DNA of 42,980 nucleotides from the NCBI GenBank assembly GCA_045121315.1, contig JBGVFW010000281.1, positions 1-42,980 of the forward strand, read 5' to 3'. The translations under genes were made by a program, and so were the position numbers. Under the pieces are notes generated by a model. It did no database searches. It saw only the letters and a program-made list of their open reading frames with translations, and was not told where the DNA came from. The stretch comes from Eubacteriales bacterium. GTDB taxonomy: Bacteria > Bacillota > Clostridia > Oscillospirales > CAG-272. Positions within the stretch are counted from its first letter, which is position 1. Every line of letters begins with the position of its first letter. Of this stretch, positions 19 to 42,980 are shown piece by piece.

Positions 19-1230
19 TTGCAGGATATTCTGAGCAATATGGCAAAGGGCGTTGATTTTAATGGTAACGATGCGATCGCGGCAAGCACTTCCGCTTATG
101 ATGATTTTGACGGTTCTGCTCCAACAGAGGAGTTGAGAAACGTACAGCCGAACATTTTTCGTTCAAGAGTGGACAATTTGTCCACTTCGGTGCAGTCAAG
201 TAAAATTAGGCGGTCGCGAAAAAACCAATTCAATCCTGTCATAGTTGCTATTGCGGTCGGTGCTGTTGCTATTATGGCGATTGTAGCAGCATTGATAATC
301 AAAGCAGGAAGAAACAGCGTCGCGGACGCGGCAACGCCGGATGAAGCGGTGGTTGTGGAAACAACCACCGCACCATCGTCGAATTCTCAGGGGCTTTACT
401 CAGCAGCGGAGCAGCTTGTTTCCGCTGCGATTGCAGAGCCGACAACGAGTATTCAGACGACAGCGCAGCCTACAACACATAGACCTACCGTCCAACCAAC
501 TACGGAAGTTGTAACGAAAGCGCCGCCAAAAGCGAGCACTGTGGAACGTCCGGAGAATACAGAACAGCAAACGGAAAACCATGCGCCTGAAAGAAGTGCA
601 GTCAGTCAAGAAAGCAAAAGCGATTCAGTAAATAACGGTAACTCAGGAAACGCTGATAACCGTCAAAAGCAGAATAGTTATATTGGCGGAGATCCGATTG
701 TTTCCTATAATGACGGCGGCGGTTATTACAATGCCGGAAACAATGAGGTCAGCAGCGTAAAGCTGTCCTACAGCTCCAAATCAATGAGTGTAGGCGACAC
801 TTTGCAACTGAGCGCAACTGTCAGTCCTGCAACAGCTAATCAGAGCCTTTCATGGAGCACTTCAAATTCTTCCGTTGTCAGTGTCAGCAATGGCTATCTT
901 GTTGCGCACCGTGCCGGTTCCGCAACGATAACCGCGAGAGCCGCAAACGGAAAATCTGCAACATGCTCCATAAAAGTGTCGGCACATGACAACAGCGCCG
1001 ACGTTCATCTTTCGGCAACGGAATACAACGTGTCAACCGGTCAGACTGTCACGATCACGCTTTATGGCGCGAATAGTGTTACATGGAACATGAGTAATAA
1101 TTTGCCGTACATTGTTTCTCATTCGTGCAATCAGCTGTCCCTCCGGGCGAGATCGTCCGGTCAAACTATCGTAACGGCAAAGGACAATCATACAGGCAAA
1201 ATCTATACCTGTACATATAATGTGAAATGA
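19..1230 (+). CDS. Membrane-anchored surface protein with bacterial Ig-like (Big_2-type) repeats; possibly 5'-truncated by the window edge
   Basis: The frame is open back to nt 1. One TM segment (VIVAIAVGAVAIMAIVAALII), an S/T/P-rich linker, then Big_2-like repeats (VGDTLQLSATVSPATANQSLSWSTSNSSVVSVSNGYLVAHRAGSATITA). Confidence 0.6.
   Translation: MQDILSNMAKGVDFNGNDAIAASTSAYDDFDGSAPTEELRNVQPNIFRSRVDNLSTSVQSSKIRRSRKNQFNPVIVAIAVGAVAIMAIVAALIIKAGRNSVADAATPDEAVVVETTTAPSSNSQGLYSAAEQLVSAAIAEPTTSIQTTAQPTTHRPTVQPTTEVVTKAPPKASTVERPENTEQQTENHAPERSAVSQESKSDSVNNGNSGNADNRQKQNSYIGGDPIVSYNDGGGYYNAGNNEVSSVKLSYSSKSMSVGDTLQLSATVSPATANQSLSWSTSNSSVVSVSNGYLVAHRAGSATITARAANGKSATCSIKVSAHDNSADVHLSATEYNVSTGQTVTITLYGANSVTWNMSNNLPYIVSHSCNQLSLRARSSGQTIVTAKDNHTGKIYTCTYNVK
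169..185. repeat. Palindrome copy 1, GTGGACAATTTGTCCAC (17/17)
   Basis: Perfect copy inside ORF 19..1230, read as VDNLST just before the TM segment. Flanked A...T. Confidence 0.95.
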
Positions 1231-1240
1231 GGAAAAAACA

Positions 1241-5538: not shown

Positions 5539-5665
5539 GAAAAACGAATCAAATCAAGTCTCGCGCCGCCGGCAGCGCCGCCGAACAACGCCGCGCCAAA
5601 AGCCGCATATCAACTGACTTTTTTCTTTTCTGTTGGAAATCAAAATTCAGAAAGAAGGTTTACAG

Positions 5666-6049
5666 ATGAACATCAATACAAACATCAATACAAACATCAA
5701 TACAATCACCGCCTACTTGTTGGTAAGCAATACCGACGCGGTAGAATTAAAGCAGCAGCTACGCAGCTTTGACGCTTCGGAGGATATGCGCAAGGTTATT
5801 TCGCTGTTATCAGAGGAATGGTATGTGCATAAGCGGCTAAATAACCTGTTCGATTACGCGCTTTTGGGCGTTTCGCCGGACAAATGCGTTTACCATTTCG
5901 AGAATATCAGGAACAACGAACGCTTTGATATATATCTGAACAATTACAACGGCAACGGACAGGACTGTACGTTCGGCTACGTTGACCGCCGCTTTGTCAC
6001 GCACGACGCGGAGAACAGTGACGAAGCAATCAGGAATTATTCGCTGTAA
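5666..6049 (+). CDS. Hypothetical protein with N-terminal (NINT)x3 repeat
   Basis: ATG 5666 with SD GAAGG 7 nt upstream (the track start 5633 is TTG without an SD). 127 aa. Confidence 0.5.
   Translation: MNINTNINTNINTITAYLLVSNTDAVELKQQLRSFDASEDMRKVISLLSEEWYVHKRLNNLFDYALLGVSPDKCVYHFENIRNNERFDIYLNNYNGNGQDCTFGYVDRRFVTHDAENSDEAIRNYSL
5669..5704 (+). repeat. Perfect 3 x 12-bp tandem repeat AACATCAATACA
   Basis: Read directly. Encodes NINT NINT NINT at codons 2-13 of ORF 5666..6049. Confidence 0.95.
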
Positions 6050-6051: not shown

Positions 6052-6068
6052 GTGGACAAATTGTCCGA
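6052..6068. repeat. Palindrome copy 2, GTGGACAAATTGTCCGA (15/17)
   Basis: Lies between the stop of 5666..6049 and ATG 6079, abutting the SD GAAGGAG. The track's GTG start at 6052 is the palindrome itself. Confidence 0.8.
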
Positions 6069-6078
6069 AGGAGAAAAT

Positions 6079-6792
6079 ATGCAGTATAAATTTTTTATCA
6101 TTGATAATTTGGAATATTTGGAAGTATGGAAGGACGGACAGTGTATAAACACTATCACGCAGCCGTTTTGCGAAAACGTGCTCAAACTTGTCAATGATGA
6201 CGGTATGTTATCCCGAAGCGAATTAGGCTTGTATGCTCGCAATATCTTCCTGTATTGGGCAGGCGAACAGAAACTTGATGACCGAGCACTGTACACAGCT
6301 ATCTCCTCCTTCTCGCTGCACGTTGCGATGGAGAATAGACAAGGGGAGCTAATCGAGGTTTTATGTCCTGAGCATTTTAATGAAATACTTTTTTACGAGA
6401 TAATCAAGGCTAATCGAAAAATTGCAGACAAACGATTATGGATAATTAGATGCAAAAGGTGTAACAGAATTTTCGCAAACCATAAACAAGGAAGAAGTGT
6501 TTTTTATTGCAATCACAAGGATAGCAACGGATATTCCTGCCACGACATAGTTTTATGCTCTTTCGAGGGTTGGAGTAAATCTGAAGAAGAAAAGAGAATC
6601 CAAAGAACATTTATAAGATATTACAATTCACAGAGAAGAAAACTGCAAAAGCGAGATATTTCAAAAGATCAACTTTCCACATGGTCAAAGATTGCTCGAA
6701 AAGTCCGCGATACTTGTATTGCAGGCGAAATAACGGAAGAAGATTTTATCAAGTGGTTAGACGAAAACAAAGATAACTATACAGAACCATAA
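6079..6792 (+). CDS. Hypothetical zinc-ribbon protein, paralogue A of a tandem pair
   Basis: Start set at ATG 6079 by SD and by alignment with paralogue B (MQYKFFIIDNLEYLEVW vs MYFKFYIIDNLEYLEVW). Contains RCKRCNRIF...YCNHKD...SCHDIV. Confidence 0.7.
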   Translation: MQYKFFIIDNLEYLEVWKDGQCINTITQPFCENVLKLVNDDGMLSRSELGLYARNIFLYWAGEQKLDDRALYTAISSFSLHVAMENRQGELIEVLCPEHFNEILFYEIIKANRKIADKRLWIIRCKRCNRIFANHKQGRSVFYCNHKDSNGYSCHDIVLCSFEGWSKSEEEKRIQRTFIRYYNSQRRKLQKRDISKDQLSTWSKIARKVRDTCIAGEITEEDFIKWLDENKDNYTEP

Positions 6793-6817
6793 ATCAGAGA
6801 AAGCCGGTAAACTGAAA

Positions 6818-7531
6818 ATGTATTTTAAATTTTATATCATAGATAATTTGGAATATTTGGAGGTATGGGAGGACGGAGAGTGTGTAAACACGCTCACACA
6901 GCCTTTTTGCGAAAACGTGCTCAAACTTGTCAATGATGACGGTATGTTATCCCGAAGTGCATTAGGCTTGTATACTCGCAATATCTTCCTGTATTGGGCA
7001 GGCGAACAGGAGCTTGACGACCGAGCACTATACACAGCTATTCCTACGCTGCGCGTAGCGATGGAGAATAGACAAGGTGATCTGATCGAGGTTTTATATC
7101 CCGAACATTTTAGCGACATTGTGTTTTACGTCATTCTAAAGGCACGCCAAAGAATTGCGTACAAAAAATTGTGGGTGATTCGTTGCAAAAGATGTCACAG
7201 GATTTTTGCAAACTTTAAACATGGTCGCAATGTTGTCTACTGCGATTATAAAGATAGTTTTGGAAAATCCTGTCGTGAGATTGTCGCTGAACGAGTAGAT
7301 GGTTGGATGAAATCAGACTATGACCGTAAAATTCAGAAAATATTTGTTAAATATTATAACGAACAGCAGCGCAAAAGAAAGAGAAAGCAGGTGACAACAG
7401 AACAAGTTGCCATTTGGTCAAAAAAAGCCCGTGCCATTCGTGACCAATGTCAAAAAGGCGAAATAACAGAAGAAGATTTTATAAAGTGGTTAGACGAAAA
7501 CAAAGAAAATTATAACGGACAAATAACATAA
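6818..7531 (+). CDS. Hypothetical zinc-ribbon protein, paralogue B of a tandem pair
   Basis: 237 aa and collinear with 6079..6792. The N-terminal roughly 70 aa and the C-terminal GEITEEDFIKWLDENK are nearly identical even at nucleotide level. Confidence 0.7.
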   Translation: MYFKFYIIDNLEYLEVWEDGECVNTLTQPFCENVLKLVNDDGMLSRSALGLYTRNIFLYWAGEQELDDRALYTAIPTLRVAMENRQGDLIEVLYPEHFSDIVFYVILKARQRIAYKKLWVIRCKRCHRIFANFKHGRNVVYCDYKDSFGKSCREIVAERVDGWMKSDYDRKIQKIFVKYYNEQQRKRKRKQVTTEQVAIWSKKARAIRDQCQKGEITEEDFIKWLDENKENYNGQIT

Positions 7532-7572
7532 GCTGTGAAACGAAATGGAAAAGTTTGTTTCACAGCTTTTTC
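7530..7572 (+). terminator. Rho-independent terminator (AAGCTGTGAAAC / GTTTCACAGCTT stem + T-run)
   Basis: 12-bp stem followed by TTTTT, immediately after stop 7531. Homologous to the hairpin at 9190..9234. Confidence 0.65.
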
Positions 7573-7575
7573 TAT

Positions 7576-7592
7576 GTGGACAAATTGTCCAC
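7576..7592. repeat. Palindrome copy 3, GTGGACAAATTGTCCAC (17/17)
   Basis: 4 nt after the terminator T-run and upstream of ORF 7643..7945. Confidence 0.95.
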
Positions 7593-7642
7593 TTGCAACA
7601 TAGACAAAATATAACCCAAATGATATAATGGAGGAAAATGTA

Positions 7643-7945
7643 ATGAAAGAAAAAGAACTAAAAGAAATATTTTTTAACAGAGCAGAGGTTGAAAATGCCG
7701 AACAGATTGTGTGTGACAACTGTTTTGAGGAAATCGTGTATATGCTGCGTGACAGTCATGGTCAGGAATTTTCATTAGGACTGACAACAGTTTTGGAGTG
7801 CATTGCTTTTGCAATCAGCGAGGGTAATCTTCCCAAACTTCCGATAAGCTGGCTTAGCGATGTGGATCACGCTTACGGAACGGCATTTTCTGAAAATGAA
7901 GAAATCCATTATTCAGATAATAGATTTTTAAGGGAATTACAATGA
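7643..7945 (+). CDS. Hypothetical acidic protein
   Basis: ATG 7643 with SD GGAGGA 6 nt upstream (the track start 7628 has no SD). ATGA overlap with the next ORF. Confidence 0.5.
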   Translation: MKEKELKEIFFNRAEVENAEQIVCDNCFEEIVYMLRDSHGQEFSLGLTTVLECIAFAISEGNLPKLPISWLSDVDHAYGTAFSENEEIHYSDNRFLRELQ

Positions 7946-8874
7946 AATACTTCAAAATAAAATCATCTCGATTGGCTGAAAGATACGAAATCACTCCGAA
8001 AATTTTCAATGAAGAAATCACTCCGAAAATTTTCAATGAAGTCACGGAACATAAATACCCTTTTGAAAAGGTACATTCTGATAAATCTGTTTCGCAGTAC
8101 GCAATATGCCCTTCTTGCTTAAACCCTATTCAAATTATTGGAATAGCCAAAAGAACAACCGTCGCTCCTTATGGTAGGCACACAGGAAAAACTGTAGACG
8201 GACTTGCCGCTTGGAATCAAAACAAATACAATTATTGTCCTTATGCCGTTCATCAGATGCGCAGAGAAATAGATGAAGATGAATTACTGCCTGAAATTAC
8301 CGAGGATATTGTTGAGTTATATGAACTGCTCAAATGTCAATTTGACAGGACGGTGTATATTATTTCTAAAGCATTGGATATTAGATGCTCTACTAATTTC
8401 TGGTCGAATGTTTTAAAACAGTATTTGGTAAATAAATATTACTGTTCACCGAGATTAACCGAAGTGAATTTACCGTATCTTTTTGCGTATTTCGGAATGT
8501 GTCATAACAATCCGTTCGGTCAGTCTGTAAAAAAAGAATCCGAACTATATTTTGTGCTAAAAAGTCATAAAAGCGTCAACCTTAGCATTTCTGATAAAAA
8601 TAATCCGGATTATGCTGTTATTAGGGGAAATAAGTTTTTTAGGTTTGAGTTTAGATTTGCCAAATATGGTTTTCGTGCTGACGATGGTAATGTATTAAAA
8701 GAATCAATGTGGTTTTATATAGATGACCTAATAAACCGTAAAACTATTTATGAGAAGCCGATAGAATTTGATGAAACCTATTTTATGAATCTCATTAACA
8801 GCGACAAAAGTAAGAAATGTAGAAATCAACGCTTGCTTGATATTGCAGAAGATTTAATGCCGCCTTTGCGTTGA
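7942..8874 (+). CDS. Hypothetical protein with Cys motifs (CPSC...YNYCPY), unknown function
   Basis: 310-aa ORF translationally coupled to 7643..7945. Contains an in-frame perfect 27-bp duplication. No family recognised. Confidence 0.6.
   Translation: MKYFKIKSSRLAERYEITPKIFNEEITPKIFNEVTEHKYPFEKVHSDKSVSQYAICPSCLNPIQIIGIAKRTTVAPYGRHTGKTVDGLAAWNQNKYNYCPYAVHQMRREIDEDELLPEITEDIVELYELLKCQFDRTVYIISKALDIRCSTNFWSNVLKQYLVNKYYCSPRLTEVNLPYLFAYFGMCHNNPFGQSVKKESELYFVLKSHKSVNLSISDKNNPDYAVIRGNKFFRFEFRFAKYGFRADDGNVLKESMWFYIDDLINRKTIYEKPIEFDETYFMNLINSDKSKKCRNQRLLDIAEDLMPPLR
7987..8040 (+). repeat. Perfect 2 x 27-bp tandem duplication (GAAATCACTCCGAAAATTTTCAATGAA)
   Basis: Read directly. Duplicates EITPKIFNE in ORF 7942..8874. 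Confidence 0.95.
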
Positions 8875-8885
8875 ATAGAAAATTG

Positions 8886-8913
8886 TTGACAATTGCGTAT
8901 TATTAAGTATAAT
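8886..8913 (+). promoter_or_regulatory. Near-consensus sigma-70/SigA-type promoter
   Basis: TTGACA (8886-8891), 16-nt spacer, TATAAT (8908-8913). The -35 lies in the small palindrome AATTGTTGACAATT. No ORF follows. Confidence 0.6.
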
Positions 8914-8919
8914 AATATA

Positions 8920-9234
8920 TGCGAAACAGTGTAGCATAAAAAAACTGTAGGTTGCATAGTAGGGAACCAACCATAATTGCCCGAATTGGCTTGTCGTACG
9001 GTCTTACGACTTAAAATAAAAACGAGGACAGTTTAAGCGTTATGGGGGACTGTCACCTGTGACGGGAAGTCTATTGGTGGGTTGGCTATAAGTGTGCCAA
9101 TGGCAGAAAACACTTAATTATTTGAGAATCAGAGCTGTTCAATCAAAATTTTTAAGCCTGATTTCAACGCAATAAAACCAATGAAAAGAAAAGCTGTGAA
9201 ACGGAAATAGATTTCGTTTCACAGCTTTTTGTTT
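8920..9234 (+). ncRNA. Candidate structured non-coding RNA (about 315 nt), family unknown
   Basis: Bounded by the consensus promoter and the terminator 9190..9234. Only tiny ORFs. Nested helices are visible (GTCGTA/TACGAC, GACAGT/ACTGTC, CCCG/CGGG, AACCAACC/GGTTGG). Confidence 0.35.
9190..9234. terminator. Bidirectional rho-independent terminator
   Basis: AAAGCTGTGAAACG / CGTTTCACAGCTTT stem with T-runs on both strands. Homologous to 7530..7572. Confidence 0.65.
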
Positions 9235-9237
9235 CAA

Positions 9238-9254
9238 GTGGACAATTTGTCCAC
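9238..9254. repeat. Palindrome copy 4, GTGGACAATTTGTCCAC (17/17)
   Basis: Sits a few nt after the terminator, the same arrangement as copy 3. Confidence 0.95.
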
Positions 9255-9363
9255 TTCATCAAGGAGTTGCATTTGTGCAGCTCCTTTTATTATAATCGGG
9301 AACTGGCTTTTGGACAATTCAGAAATAAAACTGTACATTGTTTTTTCTTTTTCTGTCATAAGT

Positions 9364-9804
9364 TTACGCCCCTACACAATACTCAATTGCCGATGTCTTT
9401 ATATTTTCAAAAGCTGTTTGATTTTCAGGCTTGATAAACAATCCGTCAAAGGTTTCGCCGTTTTCGTAGTAATAATTACAGAGCGCTTCGGTGAGGGCAA
9501 GCTCGTCGGTATGTTCAAAATCGGCAAGCATATCGTTGATGGTCTGAGTAAAGGTTGTACAGAGCGTATTACCCTTTTTGAAATAATCAATATCATCAAA
9601 GCTTTCAACTATCCGATAATTAATATTATCATATTCTCCCTTAACTCTCGCATAAACATCAATTTCCTTTTCGTTGACATAGCCAACAAACATTTGCAGA
9701 AACTCAAGCGCAGAACCGCAGCATAGAATATAATTATCTCCGTTAATAATATCTGATAACCAACCTCTGTTTGTAAGATAATCGCCGCTTGTCTTAGTTA
9801 TCAT
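9364..9804 (-). CDS. Hypothetical protein (146 aa)
   Basis: SD GAGGTGA upstream of the ATG on the minus strand. Composition is protein-like, unlike the overlapping + ORF 9229..9726. No confident family call. Confidence 0.6.
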   Translation of the reverse strand: MITKTSGDYLTNRGWLSDIINGDNYILCCGSALEFLQMFVGYVNEKEIDVYARVKGEYDNINYRIVESFDDIDYFKKGNTLCTTFTQTINDMLADFEHTDELALTEALCNYYYENGETFDGLFIKPENQTAFENIKTSAIEYCVGA

Positions 9805-9842
9805 TGTGTAATCACCTCAATTCAATACTACGTTACCGCAAA

Positions 9843-9859
9843 GTGGACAAATTGTCCAC
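9843..9859. repeat. Palindrome copy 5, GTGGACAAATTGTCCAC (17/17)
   Basis: Lies between the stop of the zeta-like gene (9862) and the start of 9364..9804. Confidence 0.95.
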
Positions 9860-9861
9860 TT

Positions 9862-10848
9862 TTATTTTTTGGGTACATTAGGATTTTGATATAATATTTT
9901 CTCGGCTTTTGATGACTGTGTAGGTGGAATCCTGATAACGCTGATTTCGTTTTTTTCAGTATTCCCCTCAACAGATATTCCTGCTCGGCGAAGCTGATCG
10001 GCTTGCTCGCGGCTTACCTTTATGTAACGATACCGATTACTTTCGGCAAAAGTGATAACTTCCTTTGCGTGTTGCCGATAAGAGGTGAGATCCTCGGCGT
10101 TCCGTGCCGCTTTTAAATCGCTCACGGCAGTGACAATTTCTTTTAACTGCTCTGTTTCGTCAATCGTCCACCAACCGTTGAGAGTTCTGCTCTCAACCTC
10201 GGATGCTGATGAACAGCCAACAGCAGGGTATAAACAATCGCCGTTGCGGTTAAATAGCTTTATCGAATCAAACGCTCCTGCTTTTTCAATGGCGTCTAAA
10301 TTATCGGCAATAGCGTCCGCTACCATGTCGTGATGTGCTTTGGCGGTTGCACGGGGGATTTCACCTTGAGCAATAGCATTTTCATATCTCAAAATCGTAC
10401 TTTCATATGAAATTTGGCTTTTTACAGCCATAATATGAAGCTCAACCCGATAACCTTTTTCTTTTAGCATTTTACAGGAGCTTATTGGAACATTCGCAGT
10501 TCGTAAAGTCCCTTCGATAATTAGATTGTATTTCTCGGCACTTAATTCATCAATAAGCCGTTCTGTAACGCGGTTAATAAAAGGTTGGGTATATTTTGGA
10601 GATTCATTGCCGTACATATATTGAATTTCATCAAAGTACGGATGAAATTCGCGAAATGAGTCGGCGTTTATTATGATAATATTTTTATTATTATTTCTTA
10701 TTTGTTTTTGAAGCACTGTTTTTCCTGCGCCGGGTTGACCGCCCAGGATAAAAGCAGTTGGGTTGACTGTTTTTGAGTGCATTTTTGTAACCCAATGTTT
10801 GATTGCTGAATATTGTTCAAAAAACTGCGCATTAGAATATTCAAACAT
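9862..10848 (-). CDS. Zeta-toxin-family P-loop kinase with C-terminal extension
   Basis: Walker A ILGGQPGAGKTV near the N-terminus and overall zeta/PezT-like layout. An extra roughly 55-aa tail (YRYIKVSREQADQLRRAGISV...). Confidence 0.8.
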   Translation of the reverse strand: MFEYSNAQFFEQYSAIKHWVTKMHSKTVNPTAFILGGQPGAGKTVLQKQIRNNNKNIIIINADSFREFHPYFDEIQYMYGNESPKYTQPFINRVTERLIDELSAEKYNLIIEGTLRTANVPISSCKMLKEKGYRVELHIMAVKSQISYESTILRYENAIAQGEIPRATAKAHHDMVADAIADNLDAIEKAGAFDSIKLFNRNGDCLYPAVGCSSASEVESRTLNGWWTIDETEQLKEIVTAVSDLKAARNAEDLTSYRQHAKEVITFAESNRYRYIKVSREQADQLRRAGISVEGNTEKNEISVIRIPPTQSSKAEKILYQNPNVPKK

Positions 10849-11108
10849 TATGCACCTACTGCAAAAGGAGAATTAACATTCTCAATTATCCTTTTGTATT
10901 CATTTATATTTCTTTCGAGTCGATTAAAAGTCACTTCATCAGAACAATCAACGATTTGCGGAGGATATTCGGCTAATTTTTCAGCCAAAACTCTTATGCA
11001 GTCTAATGGCTCTTTTGTGCTATTCAAGTAGTTAGTGTACTTAGCAAGAATGCCAAACGTCTTTTCGTATAAAACCTCAGTTTTTGCGGTCAATAAATAA
11101 CTACTCAT
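10848..11108 (-). CDS. Putative cognate antitoxin (position-based)
   Basis: Start set at ATG 11108 (SD GGAG 8 nt upstream). ATGA overlap with the zeta-like gene. Small helical protein. No sequence-family recognition. Confidence 0.45.
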   Translation of the reverse strand: MSSYLLTAKTEVLYEKTFGILAKYTNYLNSTKEPLDCIRVLAEKLAEYPPQIVDCSDEVTFNRLERNINEYKRIIENVNSPFAVGA

Positions 11109-11162
11109 AAAATACACTCCTTTTCCATTTCTAGTCAATATTATTATATGCTATATGTTCAG

Positions 11163-11179
11163 GTGGACAAATTGTCCAC
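11163..11179. repeat. Palindrome copy 6, GTGGACAAATTGTCCAC (17/17)
   Basis: Sits 2 nt downstream of the XRE gene stop and upstream of the antitoxin/zeta pair. Confidence 0.95.
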
Positions 11180-11181
11180 TT

Positions 11182-11397
11182 TTATTTTTCCTCGTCGTCA
11201 GGGACGTATTCAAGAATATCCCCGGGCTGACAGTTTAGGAAAGAACAAAGTTTTGCTATAGAACGTGTATCAATGTGTCCGCCCTCTAAGATTTTTCTAT
11301 AGGTTGCTTGACCAATAACGTTGTTAATGCGCATTGTATATGCTGTAATCTGTTTTTCTTCAAATATCTTTAGCATTTTATCATATTTAATCGGCAT
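11182..11397 (-). CDS. XRE/Cro-like helix-turn-helix transcriptional regulator
   Basis: Start at ATG 11397 (SD AGGTGG). 71 aa. HTH-like ITAYTMRINNVIGQATYRKILEG...SIAKLCSFLNCQPGDILEY. Confidence 0.75.
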   Translation of the reverse strand: MPIKYDKMLKIFEEKQITAYTMRINNVIGQATYRKILEGGHIDTRSIAKLCSFLNCQPGDILEYVPDDEEK

Positions 11398-11418
11398 TTG
11401 TTTCACCACCTTTACAAA

Positions 11419-11447
11419 ATTATAGCATAACACTCACACTAATTCAA
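11419..11447 (-). promoter_or_regulatory. Promoter of the XRE gene
   Basis: On the minus strand: TTGAAT, 17 nt, TGC-TATAAT (extended -10). Confidence 0.5.
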
Positions 11448-11736: not shown

Positions 11737-12075
11737 ATGAATATGGCTGAAAACTGGATAACGTATGATGATAAGAACAACGTCCCTCAGAAAAGCTACG
11801 ACGATCTGTTACATTGCGGCTCCACGCGGGAGCTGACTGACGATGAAGCGGTCGCCCTTGTCTGCGAGGAATTTGGCTTTGATAAAGAAAAAGTCACTGT
11901 CGTTCGGACGGTCGGGAAATACGAAATCGACACAAACAGCCGCCGTTTACGCTTGGTGGGAGAAACAGAGCGCAAACCGCTCTATAACGCGACGGATTTT
12001 AATTACGTTCGGTTTGACTGCGCAGGTTGGTTCTACGAAATGTACGACGGTGAGCTGCGCAAGTATTATTGTTAA
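11737..12075 (+). CDS. Hypothetical protein (start may be ATG 11743)
   Basis: 112-aa ORF behind the conserved leader/SD. No family recognised. Confidence 0.55.
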   Translation: MNMAENWITYDDKNNVPQKSYDDLLHCGSTRELTDDEAVALVCEEFGFDKEKVTVVRTVGKYEIDTNSRRLRLVGETERKPLYNATDFNYVRFDCAGWFYEMYDGELRKYYC

Positions 12076-12097: not shown

Positions 12098-12114
12098 GTG
12101 GACAAATTGTCCAC
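12098..12114. repeat. Palindrome copy 7, GTGGACAAATTGTCCAC (17/17)
   Basis: Intergenic between 11737..12075 and 12151..12411. Confidence 0.95.
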
Positions 12115-12150: not shown

Positions 12151-12411
12151 ATGATAGAAAGACGTTATTTTCAACCAAAGGCAGGACGGAAATATCTCAA
12201 CCGCAACGGCTCTACCTATTTCTGCTTGGCGAAGGGAAAAAAGGACTGTTCGGCTATGTTTATCAACGTGACAAGCGGCTTTACCCTATTGGCTTACGGT
12301 TGTCACAAGAACGACGACGGTACAATGGAATGGGACTATTCTACAGAGCACGGCTATCATGACATCAAATCATTCCTTGAAGGCTACGGATTCGACGGTG
12401 ATATGATATAA
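12151..12411 (+). CDS. Hypothetical protein (86 aa)
   Basis: SD AAGGAG 7 nt upstream of the ATG. Confidence 0.55.
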   Translation: MIERRYFQPKAGRKYLNRNGSTYFCLAKGKKDCSAMFINVTSGFTLLAYGCHKNDDGTMEWDYSTEHGYHDIKSFLEGYGFDGDMI

Positions 12412-12458: not shown

Positions 12459-13046
12459 ATGACACAAGGAGAAATCTTATACTTTGCTTACCTTTACGCA
12501 AAGTCAAAATTGAAGTCTGAGTATGAAATGCAGAGAGAATACTGCACCAAACGCTTTGCGGAGCTGTCGGAACAGCTTGAACAGCTTGGCATGAAGTCAG
12601 CGCAGACAGAGCCGTTGCCCTGTAAGGTTGGCGATACGCTTTATCTCACTTCCTATGAAGCAGCTGACAAAAGGAAGGTTATCGAAAAGGTAACGGTAAC
12701 TGCTATGCAGCACTACGAGGATAATCATTACACACAAGCCGAAGTCAAATACGAGAATGGGTTTACAGGATTCGTTGACGAAGTGGATTTCTACACAACG
12801 CGCAGGGCGCATTTTACCTTGGAAGAAGCAACAGAAGCAGTCGAGCGGTTTAACCTCAAGGAAAAGGCTGTTGCCGTGATTTGGGATTACATCTATCTCA
12901 ACTTCGAAAACGGAATCGATTCATTGTCAGATTATGATTGGCTGAACGATTACGCATTGAGCGCAACAGCTCCTGACGGCAAAAGAATCGTTATCAGCTA
13001 TGACTGTGATACCAATACGGTTAAAGTGGACAATTTGTCCACTTGA
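12459..13046 (+). CDS. Hypothetical protein (195 aa)
   Basis: ORF behind leader copy 2. Its last six codons plus the stop are the palindrome (VDNLST-TGA). Confidence 0.55.
   Translation: MTQGEILYFAYLYAKSKLKSEYEMQREYCTKRFAELSEQLEQLGMKSAQTEPLPCKVGDTLYLTSYEAADKRKVIEKVTVTAMQHYEDNHYTQAEVKYENGFTGFVDEVDFYTTRRAHFTLEEATEAVERFNLKEKAVAVIWDYIYLNFENGIDSLSDYDWLNDYALSATAPDGKRIVISYDCDTNTVKVDNLST
13026..13042. repeat. Palindrome copy 8, GTGGACAATTTGTCCAC (17/17)
   Basis: Forms the 3' end of ORF 12459..13046. Confidence 0.95.
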
Positions 13047-13325: not shown

Positions 13326-13354
13326 TTGACAACCTTTTACAAATAATATATAAT
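13326..13354 (+). promoter_or_regulatory. Consensus sigma-70/SigA-type promoter
   Basis: TTGACA (13326-13331), 17 nt, TATAAT (13349-13354). The -35 lies in the inverted repeat TTGTCAA-aacca-TTGACAA. No ORF follows. Confidence 0.6.
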
Positions 13355-13803: not shown

Positions 13804-13820
13804 ACGGAGAAATTGTCCAC
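13804..13820. repeat. Palindrome copy 9, degenerate ACGGAGAAATTGTCCAC (14/17)
   Basis: Right arm intact, left arm decayed. About 125 nt from the tRNA fragment. Confidence 0.6.
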
Positions 13821-36363: not shown

Positions 36364-36639
36364 TCAAAAATCAAGGTCGGAATGTGTACCGGTACGGATA
36401 AGGAGTAAAATCAGCTCGTCTTTTTGAATCTCATACACTAACAACCAATCCGGCTCAATGTGACATTCGCGGCAACCAACATAGTTGCCCGTCAGAGCGT
36501 GATCACGGTTTTTTGGCGGTAAGGCAATTCCGTTGGCGAGCTGTTCGACAACTGACCATAGCTTTTCCTCGTCATAACCGCGTTTGGAGATTTGCTTCAA
36601 ATCCTTTTTGAATCTATTATGAACTCTAATTTTCAGCAT
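36364..36639 (-). CDS. yafQ: YafQ-family (RelE/ParE superfamily) type II toxin
   Basis: KNRDHALTGNYVGCRECHIEPDWLLVYEI...RTGTHSDL closely follows the YafQ pattern. Confidence 0.9.
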   Translation of the reverse strand: MLKIRVHNRFKKDLKQISKRGYDEEKLWSVVEQLANGIALPPKNRDHALTGNYVGCRECHIEPDWLLVYEIQKDELILLLIRTGTHSDLDF

Positions 36640-36892
36640 GAAGCGCCTCTCTCAACTCAGCCACGGAATTGTAGGGTTCACTTAAATTGATTCCGTTATG
36701 TGCTTCAAAAATAGCTTGTTCGGTTTCCGCATTATATCTTGACTGACGAACCATAAACGGAATACCTCCAAATGCAATAGCCTGACGCAAAAATATATTC
36801 ATTGCCGTACTCATGTCCAATCCGAGAGAAGCAAAAAGCTCCTGTGCCTGTGTTTTGACTTCATCGTCTACTCGAATATTTATATTCGCCAT
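36626..36892 (-). CDS. dinJ: DinJ/RelB-family antitoxin
   Basis: Start at ATG 36892 (SD AAAGGAG). MANINIRVDDEVKTQAQELFASLGLDMSTAMNIFLRQ. Overlaps the toxin start. Confidence 0.85.
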   Translation of the reverse strand: MANINIRVDDEVKTQAQELFASLGLDMSTAMNIFLRQAIAFGGIPFMVRQSRYNAETEQAIFEAHNGINLSEPYNSVAELREALHAEN

Positions 36893-36914
36893 ATTAGCAT
36901 CTCCTTTCATCATT

Positions 36915-36943
36915 ATTATATCACGATATGTGCACAATGTCAA
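36915..36943 (-). promoter_or_regulatory. Consensus promoter of dinJ-yafQ
   Basis: On the minus strand: TTGACA, 17 nt, TATAAT. Confidence 0.6.
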
Positions 36944-36972
36944 CACAATAAACATATTGATATTCTGTTTCA

Positions 36973-36989
36973 GTGGACAAATTGTCCGC
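36973..36989. repeat. Palindrome copy 17, GTGGACAAATTGTCCGC (16/17)
   Basis: Lies 29 nt upstream of the -35 of the dinJ-yafQ promoter, in the divergent region before the giant ORF. Confidence 0.85.
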
Positions 36990-37076: not shown

Positions 37077-40000
37077 ATGAATGAAAAATACCTTAAATTA
37101 ACAAAACAATTCAACGATACCGTTTCTCAGCTCTCTCAATCGCCTGCTGAGTTTAACCGGTTCTTGAGGGTAGCTGCTTTTAATTATCGCTTGACCTTTC
37201 AAAATGCTGTCTTGGCATACGCGCAAGACACCGGTTCTGATTTGCTGCTGACTTATGAACAGTGGCAATCGTACAGACGGGTTCCAAAAAGGCATACAAA
37301 AGCGACTTTACTTTTTGATGTCAACCACCGTGGAAGATATGTTGTGACGTTTCCAATGTCGCGAACGGTTGTGGACAAACGCATCCACCGTTACAGAGAG
37401 CTGCGTCTCTTTGATTACAGAAATGATGCTGCGGTTGTGGAAGCTCTGAAAGCTGTCTTTCAGACGGACGCGGATAATCTGGCTGAGATCCTCTATGCCG
37501 AAAATCTCAAGAGATTTGAGAGTAATTTTGACGAAGCATATCCGGCGTTTGAGAATGAGACTGATTTTTTGGCTAAAGCAGTTACCAATATGCTTATGTG
37601 CCGTTTCGGAGAAGAAATGCCTTATAAGACCTTTTCTTTCTCTGATGGTATCAACAGGGATAATATCGAGCACATCTATCAAATGGTGATTGATGTTTTT
37701 CGCGCAGAGTATGCCGAAATTGTGACCGCTCTCCCTGCCGAGTTGGAAAAAGCGCGTGAGCAAAAGGAAGATAATGACCTGTCTTTTGATGTCACAGGCA
37801 AACAGGACGTTATCAGTCTTTTCAAAGAAAAAACCAACGAGCTTTTTCACAGCATAGACGGTCTATCCCCTTCTGAAATTGAGCAGATAGTCAGAGAGTA
37901 TGCCGAAAGCATATTTGCCGAAAACGAGATTTCAGCAGAGATTGTCGGAATAGCTGTCAGCGGTTCCCGTTGCCGCGCTTTAGAACACAACGGCTCCGAT
38001 TTGGACGTTGTGATTGAGGTGCAGTCGGATACAAAGGAAACAGCTCTTTTCAATCTGCTTAATGAGCACGCTTTTGAAATCGGCGGCGTTCGGGTTGATA
38101 TTAACCCGATTAAGGCTGATGAAACAGGAACGCTCAGCGAGTATTTGCCTACAGTGGAAAAATATTTGAATCAAATAGAAATCCTTGATTATGGCAAATA
38201 TATCATTGACAGCAGCTCGGTGTTTCATGCAAAAAGAGGAAGTATCTACACCATACCGATTGATACTTCTCCTAATCTTCGGCGCAGGCTTGAAAAAGTC
38301 GGGCTTGTACCAAGAGACGAAATGACAGACGTTGTGTTTGAAAGCGATAACGGTTCTTGGAATAAACTGATTATCCCCGACCGCTACGGCAACAAAACCA
38401 ACAGCATTGATATTTCCGACGTTTTATCACAAGGAGAAATGTCTGTTGCACAAAAGATACTGAACGATGTTATCGAGCGCGAACAGTCGATTGAAAAAGC
38501 GAAACAAAACATAAACAAAGATGATATTGAAATACTTCAAACATTAGAGCCGAGAAAAAGCGTCTTGAATTTCTCTCAGGACGAGCTTGCGCGGACTTCT
38601 GTCTGGAGTGAACGGTTTGCGGCTGACATAGGCAAAAAATCGCCGTTTTACAGATCAGAAAACGGCGAGTGGCGTGACCGCGATGAAAGTAAGAGCCAAA
38701 TCATAACAGTCGAAGCTGTTGAGACGGATTTTCAGAGTGTCCGTAATGACATTAAGGCTCAGAAAATCAAGAGAGGAATAACCGTAAATAAAGATACGCT
38801 TTGGAGTATTCAGATAAGTCGCAAGGGGCTTGAAGATAGTGTAAAATATGGCTTTAATCATAAAAACGGAAACATTTACAGTCTATTGTATGCTATTCAA
38901 AATATTGTTGCCAATAGCGTTCTTTTGGATAGTAATATTTCTGAAAATAACAATAACAATAAAGCCTATAACACGGCGTTCATGCACAAGCTCTACGCTA
39001 TTTGCAGAATCGGCGACCAACCTGTTTTGGCAAAGCTGACCGTAGAAGAATTTCTTGACGGCAAAGGCTCTACGCTAAAGAGAATGTACAATCTGCAAGA
39101 CATAAAAACGGAACCGCTCAGGCACATAGAGTTCACTGATAATCAGTTAGCTCGCTCAGTCCTGAACGGTTCTGAAATAAGTGTAGCAGATTTATTCAGG
39201 GTTGTCAAGGCGTTAGATAAAGACTTTTATCTAAACAAACAGCCGCATGAACAAGCAAAGGTGTTTCAGGTTATCACCAATGCAGGCGATGACGGCGGCT
39301 ACGATGAAAAACCGGAACACGGCACTCTTGATGAAGCGATTCAGGCAGGAAATCAGTATATAGCCGACGGTTATATTGGTTTTAGTGTTTACAATGAGGA
39401 GACGAAGCGGATTGAGTATGTTTCCGGTCAATTTGACGTAGAGAGCGCTTATTCCGCTGAAATCCTCGAAATCAATCAAATACCGGTTCCGTCTGATTTG
39501 AATAATCAGTATGTGCAAGGTGATACCAATTTTAATATTTTTGATGAAGAAGCTGAAAGAAAAAAATATCCGTTTTTTGGACACAGCGAAATAGTCAATG
39601 AAATGTTATCGGCTACACCTTATCTCAAAGCTAATCTTGACGAGATTCGTGCGTACTTTGAATCGGAAACAGATGCGGTTGTCAGACAACAGTATATCCG
39701 TGGTGTTTTCAACGATGATTTTTCCGAAGTAATTCTATCTGATGGAACACGCGTAGGATATAAAACCTATGAAAACGGATTGCTGATTTGGAAAGGTCGC
39801 TATCCAAATCGTGAAGGACAGCGTTTTTTGCATTGGGACAACGTTGTGGGACATTTTGATGCTATGCGTATGCTCGGAATGTTACACAATGGTGCTTTTG
39901 CAAATGATATGCATAATGGGCAGCTGACGTTGGTGCAAGGCATAAACGACGAACCTGAGAAAGCGTTTACTTTTTCTCAGGAAGTAATCGACAAGGCTCT

Positions 40001-42980
40001 GATACGCGGCAGCGGTATAGAAAGCGGAAAATTCAGAATCTATGAGCAATTTCAAAAAGGTTTGTCAGCAAAAGAAAATATCACTTTTCTGAAAAATGAG
40101 TATGGCATTGGCGGTTGTTCAGAAATCATTCCCTATACCGGTATCGCAGAAGATCATAACGGTCAGGGAATCCTTCTGCGGCTTGGTTATCAAGAAAACT
40201 CACCGCGTCAGCAATTGACTTGGAAGCAAGTTGAAAAACGAATTGGTGAGCTGATACAAAACGCTCTTTATCTTAATCAATCGGAAAAAGAACACTATCC
40301 TGATTGGCTGAAACAACAGGAACAGCGCAGAGCTGAACTGAAATCAGAGCGTGAATTAAGAGATGCTGTATATCAGCCGTCTGAGCCAACAAAAGCTGCT
40401 TACAGTCCGACAATGCAGGAATATTTCAAGGTAAAGGGCGAAAACCCTGACAGTATTATTCTGTTCCAGATTGGCGCGTTTTATGAAGCAATGGGAGACG
40501 ACGCAAAAGTAGTGTCCGAAGCGCTCGAATTGATTGTTACTAGCCGCCGTTTGTTAGGCGACGAAGGCATAGAAATGTGCGGCTTTCCTGAAAACCGACT
40601 GGAAACAAACCTGAATATGCTCCTTGACAGAGGTTATTCAGTTGGTGTTTCAAGTGTTGATGAAAACGGCAACCGTTCTTTTATCCTGATGGTATCAGAT
40701 AGGGCGCATGAGCCGATAAATTCAGAGCCGGTAGGCAGGATTGATTATCTGACTGCGGAAGGTGAGCTTGATCGCTCAATCGAGTACACCAATCCCACAA
40801 TGCTTGAAAAGGATATAAAGGAAGAAAGTACCTATGATGTAAAAATGGCAGTCTATCTCTATCGTGATAAAGACGGTAGGGTTATGCAGCATGATTTTAT
40901 TGATAGGTTGCCAAATCCCTTGCAGCACTTTGAGATTATCGACAAACCTGCTTCACAGTCTGAGCATGACGTTCTTTTGAATCGGGCGCAGGAGCTGATA
41001 AGTGAGTACATGGACGCAGAATTTGGCAGTGATAATGACGAACCGTATGAACTCCCGGAAGATATTTCTGACGTTAATCTGGCGTATACAACTACCGAAG
41101 ATGAACAGCATGAAATTACTGCTGACGCAAACCTCGTCGATTTCCGTATCGAAACGAAAATTGACGGCAAGGTCGTCCGAACAGAGCAGTATGACTCTTT
41201 ACTGGATATGGTGGAAAACGGTCTGGACGGATTGAGGTTTGACGACCTTGTGTATGTCAGCGATGAAGAACTGGCACCGTTCTATGATGAACCAACAGAG
41301 GAAAAAAACGACGTGCTTCCTGCTGAAAAGCCTTCATTGAAGCTGACGCAGGAAGATATTGACAGTCTGATCATTCAGCGCGCAACCACTGCCAACGCAA
41401 AGCTGCGTGCTTTTCATGCGGTACACGGCGGTGAGAGCGACGACACAATTATTAGCATTCTCAGAGAGGGATACAGTCAAAACGGCAAGACAATAAGATC
41501 GGACAGCGGAATGCCATTGTATATCAGCTGTGACTTTAGAGGAATCTTTGTAGGAGACTTTGAGAATCGTTTTACACCTGTGCTTCTGACCTATCATCAA
41601 CTGTTACAGCGTATCAAGGAACTTACGCTTACCAATCGCTATCTTTCAGATTCGGAGTATTTGGCGTATGCGGAGGAATATCGTCTCTTTGATAAAGCCG
41701 AAAGACTGAGAGAAGTGAATTTTCAATATAGTGCCGGAGATACCATCTATCTCAGCGGACAGCCGTATATCATTTCTGATTTGAGCGGTGACACTGTAAC
41801 GGTTTACCAACCGGATGCGCCGTTGTTTGTTCATAACTATGACCGTGCGGAGTTTGAAGCGCTGCTGCTGCAAAATATTGACGACAATATGCAGCTTGTT
41901 GTCAAGCCGCAAACGCATTATGAGATCTATCAGCTTGTCGATTCAGAAAGAACGGATAAATACATGTTTTTATCCTTAAAAGCGCTTGAAGATTCTCATC
42001 TTACTATTGAGCGTTCCAACTATACCTTAGTGTATACAGGAACTCTTGGGGAGAGCGAAAACATTGATTCTCTGTATGAGCGTTTTAACATTCATGCTCC
42101 ATCTGACTTCTATGGTTATTCAATGTCGGTTTCTGATGTTGTAGTGCTCACAAGAAATGATGTGAGCGTGGCTTACTATTGTGACGACGTAGGCTTCACC
42201 GAAATTCCGGGATTTATGACTTACGAGCGCATAAGGGACTATGTGTTGTTTCATCCGCAGGAGCGCACCGTTTCATGGATTTATTTCAATCCTGATGGCA
42301 ATCTTGGGAATGGACAAATTGTCCACGAATTTATTTCCGTAGACGAACTGGCAAGCCGTATTGATTCGTTGACGAGAGACGAGTTGCCGGATTATTTTTC
42401 AGATTTCGGAACGCAGCAAGTGTATGACATTGAGAATCCTGAATGGTATACAACCGAGTATGACCAATACGCCAATGAACAGCCTGCCGGTTTGAGAATG
42501 GTTTGGAATTCACACATGTCAGATGAAAACTACGAAGCCTTTAAGGATATTGTCAAGGAATTTCAGCAGGCTTCAAAAGTTTATCAAGCGCCGCAAGTTG
42601 TTATCAATTTTTCGGAGCACCCTGCACTGTATCAAATTTCTCATGAAAAAACAAGACTCAGTTTTACCTATGCGAACGAGCTGCTTGGCAGACTGGATAT
42701 GTTGGAGAATGCCAAACGCGAAAATCCTGCGGCTGGTTTCTACTACAAAACCGATTACACCGTTTATGGTTCTGAAGACGGAATAAATCTTGTTCGTCTG
42801 AACGGACGATATGACCTTGCCGATGGTGAAACAAATCTGGTCGGTCATATTGAACGTGTCAGAAAAGCAGAAAGCGGCGAAAACGCAGAGACGTTAAGCG
42901 CTTGGCTGTCTATGTTGCAGGACAGCATTGAGAGCAATCCTTTGACAGAAGCGGAAAAGAATGAGATTGACCAGATAGTG
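37077..42980 (+). CDS. Giant multidomain 'polyvalent' protein, 3'-partial (at least 1968 codons, runs off the window)
   Basis: Not in the supplied ORF track because no stop is reached. The frame is open from the stop at 37008-37010 to nt 42980. ATG 37077 follows SD AAGGAG (alternative ATG 37053). Domains recognised by eye are an ArdC-N-like domain (about 37150-37320), a Pol-beta-type nucleotidyltransferase VSGSRCRALEHNGSDLDVVIEV (about 37860-38170), a MutS domain-I-like segment MQEYFKVKGENPDSIILFQIGAFYEAMGDDA...MCGFPE (about 40409-40700), and a YodL-like domain (about 41915-42215). Confidence 0.85.
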   Translation, partial: MNEKYLKLTKQFNDTVSQLSQSPAEFNRFLRVAAFNYRLTFQNAVLAYAQDTGSDLLLTYEQWQSYRRVPKRHTKATLLFDVNHRGRYVVTFPMSRTVVDKRIHRYRELRLFDYRNDAAVVEALKAVFQTDADNLAEILYAENLKRFESNFDEAYPAFENETDFLAKAVTNMLMCRFGEEMPYKTFSFSDGINRDNIEHIYQMVIDVFRAEYAEIVTALPAELEKAREQKEDNDLSFDVTGKQDVISLFKEKTNELFHSIDGLSPSEIEQIVREYAESIFAENEISAEIVGIAVSGSRCRALEHNGSDLDVVIEVQSDTKETALFNLLNEHAFEIGGVRVDINPIKADETGTLSEYLPTVEKYLNQIEILDYGKYIIDSSSVFHAKRGSIYTIPIDTSPNLRRRLEKVGLVPRDEMTDVVFESDNGSWNKLIIPDRYGNKTNSIDISDVLSQGEMSVAQKILNDVIEREQSIEKAKQNINKDDIEILQTLEPRKSVLNFSQDELARTSVWSERFAADIGKKSPFYRSENGEWRDRDESKSQIITVEAVETDFQSVRNDIKAQKIKRGITVNKDTLWSIQISRKGLEDSVKYGFNHKNGNIYSLLYAIQNIVANSVLLDSNISENNNNNKAYNTAFMHKLYAICRIGDQPVLAKLTVEEFLDGKGSTLKRMYNLQDIKTEPLRHIEFTDNQLARSVLNGSEISVADLFRVVKALDKDFYLNKQPHEQAKVFQVITNAGDDGGYDEKPEHGTLDEAIQAGNQYIADGYIGFSVYNEETKRIEYVSGQFDVESAYSAEILEINQIPVPSDLNNQYVQGDTNFNIFDEEAERKKYPFFGHSEIVNEMLSATPYLKANLDEIRAYFESETDAVVRQQYIRGVFNDDFSEVILSDGTRVGYKTYENGLLIWKGRYPNREGQRFLHWDNVVGHFDAMRMLGMLHNGAFANDMHNGQLTLVQGINDEPEKAFTFSQEVIDKALIRGSGIESGKFRIYEQFQKGLSAKENITFLKNEYGIGGCSEIIPYTGIAEDHNGQGILLRLGYQENSPRQQLTWKQVEKRIGELIQNALYLNQSEKEHYPDWLKQQEQRRAELKSERELRDAVYQPSEPTKAAYSPTMQEYFKVKGENPDSIILFQIGAFYEAMGDDAKVVSEALELIVTSRRLLGDEGIEMCGFPENRLETNLNMLLDRGYSVGVSSVDENGNRSFILMVSDRAHEPINSEPVGRIDYLTAEGELDRSIEYTNPTMLEKDIKEESTYDVKMAVYLYRDKDGRVMQHDFIDRLPNPLQHFEIIDKPASQSEHDVLLNRAQELISEYMDAEFGSDNDEPYELPEDISDVNLAYTTTEDEQHEITADANLVDFRIETKIDGKVVRTEQYDSLLDMVENGLDGLRFDDLVYVSDEELAPFYDEPTEEKNDVLPAEKPSLKLTQEDIDSLIIQRATTANAKLRAFHAVHGGESDDTIISILREGYSQNGKTIRSDSGMPLYISCDFRGIFVGDFENRFTPVLLTYHQLLQRIKELTLTNRYLSDSEYLAYAEEYRLFDKAERLREVNFQYSAGDTIYLSGQPYIISDLSGDTVTVYQPDAPLFVHNYDRAEFEALLLQNIDDNMQLVVKPQTHYEIYQLVDSERTDKYMFLSLKALEDSHLTIERSNYTLVYTGTLGESENIDSLYERFNIHAPSDFYGYSMSVSDVVVLTRNDVSVAYYCDDVGFTEIPGFMTYERIRDYVLFHPQERTVSWIYFNPDGNLGNGQIVHEFISVDELASRIDSLTRDELPDYFSDFGTQQVYDIENPEWYTTEYDQYANEQPAGLRMVWNSHMSDENYEAFKDIVKEFQQASKVYQAPQVVINFSEHPALYQISHEKTRLSFTYANELLGRLDMLENAKRENPAAGFYYKTDYTVYGSEDGINLVRLNGRYDLADGETNLVGHIERVRKAESGENAETLSAWLSMLQDSIESNPLTEAEKNEIDQIV
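42310..42326. repeat. Palindrome copy 18, ATGGACAAATTGTCCAC (16/17)
   Basis: Inside the giant ORF, read as NGQIVH. Confidence 0.85.

Follow-up and report, generated by a model that had tools for sequence, protein, structure and literature searches.

A 17-bp perfect palindrome, GTGGACAAWTTGTCCAC, recurs throughout a stretch of 42,980 nucleotides from an Eubacteriales bacterium (contig JBGVFW010000281.1; hereafter the window, meaning the whole stretch analysed), which is part of a conjugative element of the Gram-positive, Ruminococcus/Clostridia type, and the question raised by this locus is which protein reads the repeated site and what the reading is for. A first, sequence-only reading had proposed an operator and centromere network for a dimeric DNA-binding protein encoded by the element itself, with a ParB-like protein, a small XRE regulator and two SpoVG-like proteins as candidate binders and with KorB of plasmid RK2 as the closest analogy. 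The comparative analysis described here singles out ParB: the palindrome is likely to be a site of the parS type, recognised by the ParB that the element itself encodes (16362-17753), and the set of sites may in addition be a KorB-like set of operators, a regulatory part to which we give about an even chance.

The inventory of sites is reproduced in full. All 11 perfect copies counted earlier are present, and none occurs in any of 100 dinucleotide-preserving shuffles of the window; the seven near copies, with one mismatch (17067, 30313, 36973 and 42310), two mismatches (6052) and three mismatches (13804 and 21716), are likewise identical to those first listed. When up to three mismatches are allowed the window holds 18 sites, whereas its shuffles average 0.09 and never exceed 2. 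The earlier statement that most copies carry an A...T flank (A-17mer-T) also holds, at 12 of the 18 sites, many of which reach AAGTGGACAAWTTGTCCACTT, and so do the placements of one copy 24 nt before parA (15226-15242, ahead of the ATG at 15267), two copies within parB (17067 and 17241) and one upstream of the dinJ-yafQ promoter (36973, 29 nt before TTGACA-17-TATAAT on the minus strand). The distribution of the sites is far from even: 10 of the 11 perfect copies cluster at 7.5-18.4 kb, and non-coding DNA, which is 7.5% of the window, yet holds 9 of the 18 sites (binomial P = 2e-6). Nine sites lie wholly within open reading frames (ORFs), and three abut sigma-70-like promoters. The perfect coding copies (169, 13026, 17241, 18065 and 18389) are all read in the frame that gives VDNLST; the alternative two frames of the palindrome would give WT(N/I)CP or GQ(I/F)VH.

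The proposed reader is encoded in the middle of this cluster. ParB scores 69.7 bits against TIGR00180 over residues 27-198 (cut-off 58.45) and also matches PF02195; its N-terminal domain and helix-turn-helix (HTH) match the H. pylori, Thermus and Bacillus ParB and Noc structures in the PDB, 4umk with E = 2e-13 over residues 11-222. A search with this protein returned 3622 homologues. The parA product has AAA_31 and CbiA matches, and the NCBIfam ParA models matched it below their cut-offs; the parA-parB order is kept in all relatives. Judged by its sequence, the protein is a bona fide ParB, and by the tests run (a ParA neighbour, a ParB domain with HTH, and lineage-specific palindromes) the locus appears to qualify as a ParABS system. 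Both in-gene sites are held by a disordered acidic linker (residues 233-329), which is followed by a folded C-terminal domain (residues 335-463). In the AlphaFold2 model the N-terminal half and the C-terminal domain are folded, and the predicted local distance difference test score (pLDDT) is below 50 at residues 233-260 and 269-329, where both copies fall; they are therefore located where the coding constraint is weakest.

The position of the sites at the par locus is conserved. Six relatives selected by the motif (ParB 38-85% identical) have a site ahead of the parA ATG, at about 22 nt or, in two of them, at 77 nt, together with one to three copies in parB. In order to remove ascertainment bias, 40 loci were fetched by ParB peptide patterns alone. 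Group 1 (about 82% identity in the N-terminal half) has a site before parA (two loci have it at offset -1130 from the parB start) and one or two in parB; group 2 (about 52% identity) has, in 15 of 15 loci, a site whose offset from the parB start is -838 (in L136, 21 nt before the parA ATG), and one or two copies within parB, two of them in 14 of the 15. Among the best 120 ParB homologues (44-98% identity), 106 carry one to three copies of [VMIL]D[NK]LS[TSA], nearly all VD[NK]LST, whose number and position in the linker vary; the full-length exceptions are mostly near-variants such as ADNLST, TDNLST and VDKLSN. Sites outside the par locus also recur at the same positions in near relatives (6052, 7576 and 9843 in L107; 36973 in L029), and in L165 and L166 the gene junctions are likewise punctuated, with 7-8 sites per 16 kb. 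Behind parB, two small ORFs (17777-18469; 153 and 76 aa) have one perfect in-frame site each; in L123 they align with the acidic linker of ParB, as if linker and site had been duplicated downstream.

The best evidence for ParB as the reader is that three recognition helices go with three palindromes at par positions. The window ParB has the helix SKKKIYRYIRL and the motif described above. In group 3, composed of 16 human-gut loci (L143-L158; about 42% identity), the helix is NRKAVHRHIRL and the window motif is absent (0 copies, even at two mismatches); a different 17-bp palindrome, TGTCCCACSGTGGGACA, lies 39 nt before parA and in the parB linker, where it is read KCPTVGHL (in L143, at 9152-9168 and 10874-10890). 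In L033 the helix is SKATIHRYLRL, and GGTCTCA-N3-TGAGACC is found twice before parA (5108 and 5142) and once at the parB end (3333). The flanks AAGTG...CACTT are common to the window site and the group-3 site. The SpoVG-like proteins were dropped as candidates: they are encoded downstream of parB throughout groups 1 and 2, but no tblastn match to them was obtained in the group-3 loci with the two-site par arrangement.

The in-gene copies are under selection as DNA. In parB genes, 45 of 60 occurrences of D[NK]LS are exactly GAC AAW TTG TCC, against background codon frequencies of 0.46 for GAC, 0.23 for TTG and 0.19 for TCC, and the third base of the next codon, which is just beyond the 17-mer, varies (ACT, ACG, ACA, ACC); codons that are fixed inside the motif next to a free wobble base indicate that it is the DNA that is selected. 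Selection on the VDNLST peptide was considered and rejected, because eight copies in the window, as well as those of L015 and L164, are in non-coding DNA, and because the codons are fixed.

The same palindrome might act mainly as RNA, as a hairpin or terminator between genes, where it would end transcripts or make them more stable, much like repetitive extragenic palindromic (REP) elements. Many sites do lie 0-45 nt from stop or start codons, three are terminator-like (9840-9862, 11161-11181 and 15245-15223), and the hairpin is predicted to be moderately stable (-8.4 to -12.4 kcal/mol). A T-run is present, however, at 3 of the 18 sites only, and at least one of these, 15245-15223 (minus), has no upstream gene on its strand; ten sites are within coding sequence. 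Moreover, an RNA hairpin would allow compensatory changes, whereas the motif stays the same in elements with ParB proteins of only 38-52% identity and switches wholesale with the ParB lineage. The genomic distribution bears on this as well. The motif was scanned in 596 Gb of species-representative genomes in 8-kb blocks, where about 70 chance single matches were estimated by hand, and at least 119 blocks were found, at least 30 of which have homologues of element genes. Among the matches listed, blocks with clusters of 2-6 sites occur only in Ruminococcus/Clostridia contigs with homologues of window genes and in a few Bacteroidota plasmid-like contigs, and lone matches in unrelated phyla fit the number expected by chance. 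The long contigs among them (125-226 kb) have one motif block each, which argues against a REP-like element of the host; such an element, equally dense along the chromosome, was the alternative named in the sequence-only reading, and these long contigs hold the motif only in blocks with element genes. A mainly RNA-level function is improbable.

A second protein that could read the site is the small XRE/HTH_26 regulator (11182-11433, minus), for which the palindrome would be the operator, in the way the N-terminal HTH of M.SsoII uses AGGACAAATTGTCCT. Its association with the motif is close: a homologue of XRE (28-66% identity) is followed by the motif within a few nucleotides of its stop codon in 8 of 8 elements, window included; in two elements, L104 and L013, the gene ends in frame with the motif (protein end ...EKVDNLSTLS); and the motif is found in the same way behind P0244 and behind the second HTH_26 gene of L165. 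In addition, the 13-bp core GGACAAATTGTCC is the proven operator of a small HTH dimer (PMC6100179). The XRE homologues P0275 and P0293 (64-68% identity), which lie in a prophage-like locus and in a small integrative element, have, however, no motif copies at up to two mismatches within 9-16 kb, and the recognition helix of P0293, IGQATYKKILEGG, nearly equals that of the window XRE, IGQATYRKILEGG; near-identical helices in motif-free loci argue against XRE as the binder. Conversely, the 15 group-2 loci have the par-locus motif with no XRE within 10 kb, and the Bacteroidota plasmids discussed below have it without a nearby homologue of XRE. A role of XRE as the reader is thus very unlikely, and because of this evidence we interpret the site next to XRE as one for ParB, at an internal promoter of an XRE-epsilon-zeta module. 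In L104 and L013 that site is 6 nt before a TTGAAA-17-TATAAT promoter (TTGTCC-16-TATAAT in the window). A module formed by a small HTH_26 gene, the palindrome right past its stop codon and then a toxin-type cassette (epsilon-zeta or an AbiEii-containing pair) is recurrent, for example at L165:4657-4896 and 8001-8236.

The resemblance to the regulatory site of M.SsoII and M.Ecl18kI, AGGACAAATTGTCCT, extends to an identical 13-bp core, GGACAAATTGTCC; there, a small HTH domain binds as a dimer and represses a promoter (PMC6100179, PMC2760811). The system differs in that this domain is the N-terminal part of a cytosine methyltransferase of small enterobacterial plasmids and in having one site per plasmid. 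XRE has no detectable similarity to the M.SsoII N domain: a BLASTP with residues 1-70 of M.SsoII (sequence verified) gave no match to XRE, and only short, non-significant matches (E >= 0.29) to ParB and to the Bacteroidota ParB-like proteins. A binder of the M.SsoII type was dropped, as protein homology was not found and XRE homologues occur without the motif, and the common core is most likely a coincidence or a convergence.

The sites might also be recombination targets or module junctions, used by the tyrosine recombinase encoded beside parA or as microhomology between related elements. BLASTN homology with relatives (L107, L019, L118 and L029) breaks at sites or within about 30 nt of them (7594, 9279-9870, 15224 and 36972); sites 7576 and 9238, which have the flank GTTTCACAGCTTTTT in common (7557-7592 and 9217-9254), bracket a 1.7-kb segment absent from the closest relative, L107; and the integrase-parA-parB order is kept, the integrase being different in group 3. 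The architecture of the site fits this poorly, in that its 8-bp arms are split by one base and do not leave the 6-8-bp crossover region that tyrosine recombinases use; no tyrosine-recombinase gene is found, in the listed ORFs, beside the Bacteroidota par loci with the site; and in-frame parB copies are kept in 88% of homologues, a better fit to a ParB site. Recombination as the function of the palindrome is therefore very unlikely, and ParB is retained as its reader; the sites nevertheless appear, from the alignments, to mark module junctions. Sites 7576 and 9238, with the segment between them (ORFs 7628-7945 and 7942-8874), resemble a duplicated site and flank around an insertion. Exchanges at such junctions include the dinJ-yafQ cassette (36429-36972), in whose place L029 has 1.7 kb of other DNA, and 7594-9279, which is replaced in L107.

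A further line of comparison is provided by the Bacteroidota contigs with the motif, whose gene products include Rep3, ParA and a ParB-like protein (about 290 aa) with VDGHNRY and the HTH VSxKTIQRDEKFA. The window ParB matches the L015 protein by BLASTP with E = 4e-8 over the N domain and the Bacteroidota family by hhalign at 94.9% (E = 5e-8, HTH aligned), and a direct BLASTP with the L056 protein finds the motif peptide only; the proteins are distant homologues. One Bacteroidota subclade has 1-5 in-frame copies (VDNLST, VDKLST and near variants) between box III and the HTH, which in Raineyaceae/Cytophagales are read as (T/K)EVDNLST repeats. Non-coding copies are found before parA, namely GTAGACAAATTGTCTAC and GTGGACAAATTGTCCAC in L015 (GTGGAC.../GTAGAC...) and two copies of GTCGACAAATTGTCGAC in L164; the variants change symmetrically at position 3, as expected of the site of a dimer. 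No homologue of the window XRE was found at the Bacteroidota par loci; L089 (5.9 kb) has an unrelated 67-aa HTH-like ORF. A wider proposal, which we consider speculative and rather doubtful, is that a single 17-bp parS (core GACAAWTTGTC) is common to two very distant ParB lineages, in Bacillota and in Bacteroidota, and has repeatedly been written into parB as VD(N/K)LST codons, so that site and reader would be inseparable; the Clostridia ParB would then have been recruited as a KorB-like sliding silencer, whose loading sites at nearly every module junction would double as exchange breakpoints.

The proposed mechanism has two parts. ParB dimers would bind the palindrome through their HTH domains, and the 10 perfect sites at 7.5-18.4 kb around parAB would nucleate a partition complex on which ParA (15267-16058) acts, that is, a centromere. 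Since many sites are at promoters or 20-40 nt before start codons, ParB would also repress transcription, either while bound at such a site or after loading at it and sliding outward; the targets would be parAB itself and the neighbouring maintenance modules (XRE-epsilon-zeta, dinJ-yafQ and small ORFs), as with KorB on RK2. The network first proposed has thus gained comparative support, from the par-locus sites, from helix covariation and from the Bacteroidota par sites, and its list of candidate binders is reduced to ParB; binding, repression and partition would be its expected activities.

The IncP plasmid RK2 has 12 OB sites. KorB loads at OB as a clamp dependent on cytidine triphosphate (CTP) and slides to promoters (PMC11790492, PMC13584720). 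The two systems are alike in having a ParB-family protein with a ParA-type ATPase, a short palindrome dispersed on a conjugative element, and promoter-proximal, distal and intragenic classes of sites, with a likely dual role as centromere and global repressor. They differ in the site, since OB is TTTAGCSGCTAAA and unrelated to that of the window; in the host, which here is Gram-positive (Clostridia); in the translated copies within parB itself; and in box II, which is off the consensus. The window ParB is also no closer to KorB than to chromosomal ParB/Noc, with no KorB chain among the PDB matches at E <= 0.01. The analogy drawn at the outset is borne out for the layout of the operators and does not extend to orthology: the locus would work like a KorB network with a ParB that is not a KorB orthologue. 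On RK2, KorA and TrbA are clamp-locking partners; no KorA-like partner or OA site was identified in the window, where no search for KorA/TrbA was made, and the XRE gene, which always adjoins a site, is a mere lead to such a partner.

The closest sequence and structure relatives are the chromosomal ParB/Spo0J proteins (TIGR00180; 4umk, 1vz0, 6sdk), which also have several 16-17 bp palindromes around parAB. In B. subtilis a parS site lies within spo0J, a precedent for a site inside parB. The chromosomal parS, by contrast, is TGTTNCACGTGAAACA; the window system is on a mobile element, its density is far higher (18 sites per 43 kb), and in its family parB itself has 1-3 copies, in a disordered linker and always read VD(N/K)LST. 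SopB of the linear plasmid-prophage N15 (IR1-4) offers a parallel for single inverted repeats scattered on a mobile element with no tandem array (PMC7205306 and references cited there), but it has only four sites, it is a type Ia ParB of Proteobacteria, and its site is GTGCGACC..GGTCGCAC. In the literature searched, neither the site sequence nor this ParB family is described, the only match to the 17-mer being the M.SsoII/Ecl18kI regulatory site; a study of RNA structure in Caulobacter parB (PMC13371061) concerns the 5' end of that gene and was set aside as not relevant. Features that appear unusual are the in-gene, in-frame sites, the sharing of one site across phyla by distant ParB families, and the presence of sites at module junctions.

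Several points weigh against ParB as the reader and against the mechanism outlined above. The support is comparative throughout, and it is from sequence that we infer that ParB binds the sites, loads or slides as a clamp, represses and partitions; promoters were assigned by consensus scans only. Box II of ParB (residues 82-89) is DGRHRRRA, where the canonical form is GERRxRA; it is invariant in 41 aligned homologues and keeps arginines, with the GERR glutamate changed to Arg and the first arginine to His, and a box III-like SNLIRNNDYLPSELA is present. Because of this box II a CTP-dependent clamp is not to be assumed. ParB is also not the sole covarying gene, as the integrase beside parA differs between group 3 and groups 1-2. 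Group 3 has just two par-locus sites, so that the dispersed network is a trait of the window's lineage and the regulatory network may be lineage-specific. The recognition helices of the two site-sharing families differ at several residues (SKKKIYRY and SxKTIQRD), which makes an identical specificity not obvious, and the predicted hairpin (-8 to -12 kcal/mol) leaves room for an added role at the RNA level.

The par genes and the sites are collected in Table 1, and the setting in which they lie was defined through Pfam and NCBIfam scans of the window. These identify a Big_2 surface protein, two sortases with a SpaA/thioester adhesin and a pilin (a sortase pilus), topoisomerase III, a DUF3991-Toprim primase, an HTH_36/Rep-like protein, SSB, MobC, a relaxase, ArdC, YafQ/DinJ, a zeta toxin with its presumed antitoxin behind the small XRE/HTH_26 gene, a tyrosine integrase, ParA, DUF6618, ParB, two SpoVG-like genes and three DUF6076 paralogues. 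Two of these paralogues are in tandem (6052-7531), flanked by sites 6052 and 7576, and the third (29778-30629) holds site 30313. An ORF of more than 1560 aa (about 38300-42980, +), which runs past the window end and holds site 42310, has LPD3, MutS_I, YodL and LPD25 domains, and is thus a "large polyvalent protein" typical of conjugative elements. The relatives of the element are in assemblies of rumen and gut Ruminococcus/Clostridia; megablast of 14-22 kb of the window against plasmid and phage collections gave no match, and neither did Rfam and tRNA scans of the window. Three promoters match the sigma-70 consensus perfectly (12/12): 8886-8913 (+), 13326-13354 (+) and 13500-13472 (-), the last two at 13.3-13.5 kb, with small ORFs on one side and the integrase gene on the other. 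The longest ORF of dinJ begins upstream of its own consensus promoter (36900-36955, minus), so that the true start must be below 36900, in agreement with a RelB Pfam match from residue 22.

Table 1. The par genes, the 18 palindrome sites of the window and the in-gene copies of Bacteroidota. Sites 9843, 12098 and 13026 stand 22-39 nt before a start codon.
Feature	Coordinates	Strand	Match	Context
parA	15267-16058	+		Walker-type ParA/MinD ATPase, 263 aa
parB	16362-17753	+		N-terminal ParB domain plus HTH, aa 27-198; recognition helix SKKKIYRYIRL; proposed binder
Site 169	169-185		perfect	in frame (VDNLST) in Big_2 surface-protein ORF 19-1230
Site 6052	6052-6068		2 mismatches	intergenic; 2 nt past stop of ORF 5633-6049; about 10 nt ahead of the DUF6076a ATG that follows AGGAG, resembling a ribosome-binding site; kept in L107
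Site 7576	7576-7592		perfect	intergenic; 8 nt before promoter-like TAGACA-17-TATAAT (7601-7629, + strand); kept in L107
Site 9238	9238-9254		perfect	intergenic; upstream flank GTTTCACAGCTTTTT common with site 7576
Site 9843	9843-9859		perfect	intergenic; between zeta-toxin stop (9862, minus) and start of ORF 9364-9804 (minus); terminator-like on + strand (9840-9862); kept in L107
Site 11163	11163-11179		perfect	2 nt past XRE stop; overlaps -35 of epsilon-zeta promoter (TTGTCC-16-TATAAT, 11170-11143, minus)
Site 12098	12098-12114		perfect	between ORF 11737-12075 and ORF 12151-12411
Site 13026	13026-13042		perfect	codes final six residues (VDNLST*) of ORF 12459-13046; next ATG 22 nt on
Site 13804	13804-13820		weak, 3 mismatches	intergenic, upstream of integrase gene
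Site 15226	15226-15242		perfect	24 nt before parA ATG; position kept in all relatives examined
Site 17067	17067-17083		1 mismatch	in frame in parB linker (MDKLST, aa 236-241)
Site 17241	17241-17257		perfect	in frame in parB linker (VDNLST, aa 294-299)
Site 18065	18065-18081		perfect	in frame (VDNLST) in ORF 17777-18238
Site 18389	18389-18405		perfect	in frame (VDNLST) in ORF 18239-18469; SpoVG-like gene 61 nt on
Site 21716	21716-21732		weak, 3 mismatches	in small ORF 21591-21764, outside VDNLST frame
Site 30313	30313-30329		1 mismatch	in DUF6076c (29778-30629), outside VDNLST frame
Site 36973	36973-36989		1 mismatch	29 nt before -35 of dinJ-yafQ promoter (TTGACA 36943-36938, TATAAT 36920-36915, minus); kept in L029
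Site 42310	42310-42326		1 mismatch	in large polyvalent-protein ORF (about 38.3 kb to window end), outside VDNLST frame
Bacteroidota in-gene copies (Cytophagales, Raineyaceae)	L056:763-911; L051:3307-3368; L016:933-994; L089:3533-3594; L112:2736		four exact in L056	

If ParB is the reader of the palindrome, a centromere and an operator would be defined for conjugative elements of rumen and gut Clostridia that form a large and uncharacterised family. This family would offer a Gram-positive counterpart to the KorB network of RK2, and the general use of ParB clamps as long-range silencers would become testable. The three natural pairs of helix and palindrome would be material for studies of ParB specificity and possibly orthogonal ParB/parS labelling tools, and the in-gene, in-frame parS copies would be a case of a DNA site constraining the sequence of a protein.

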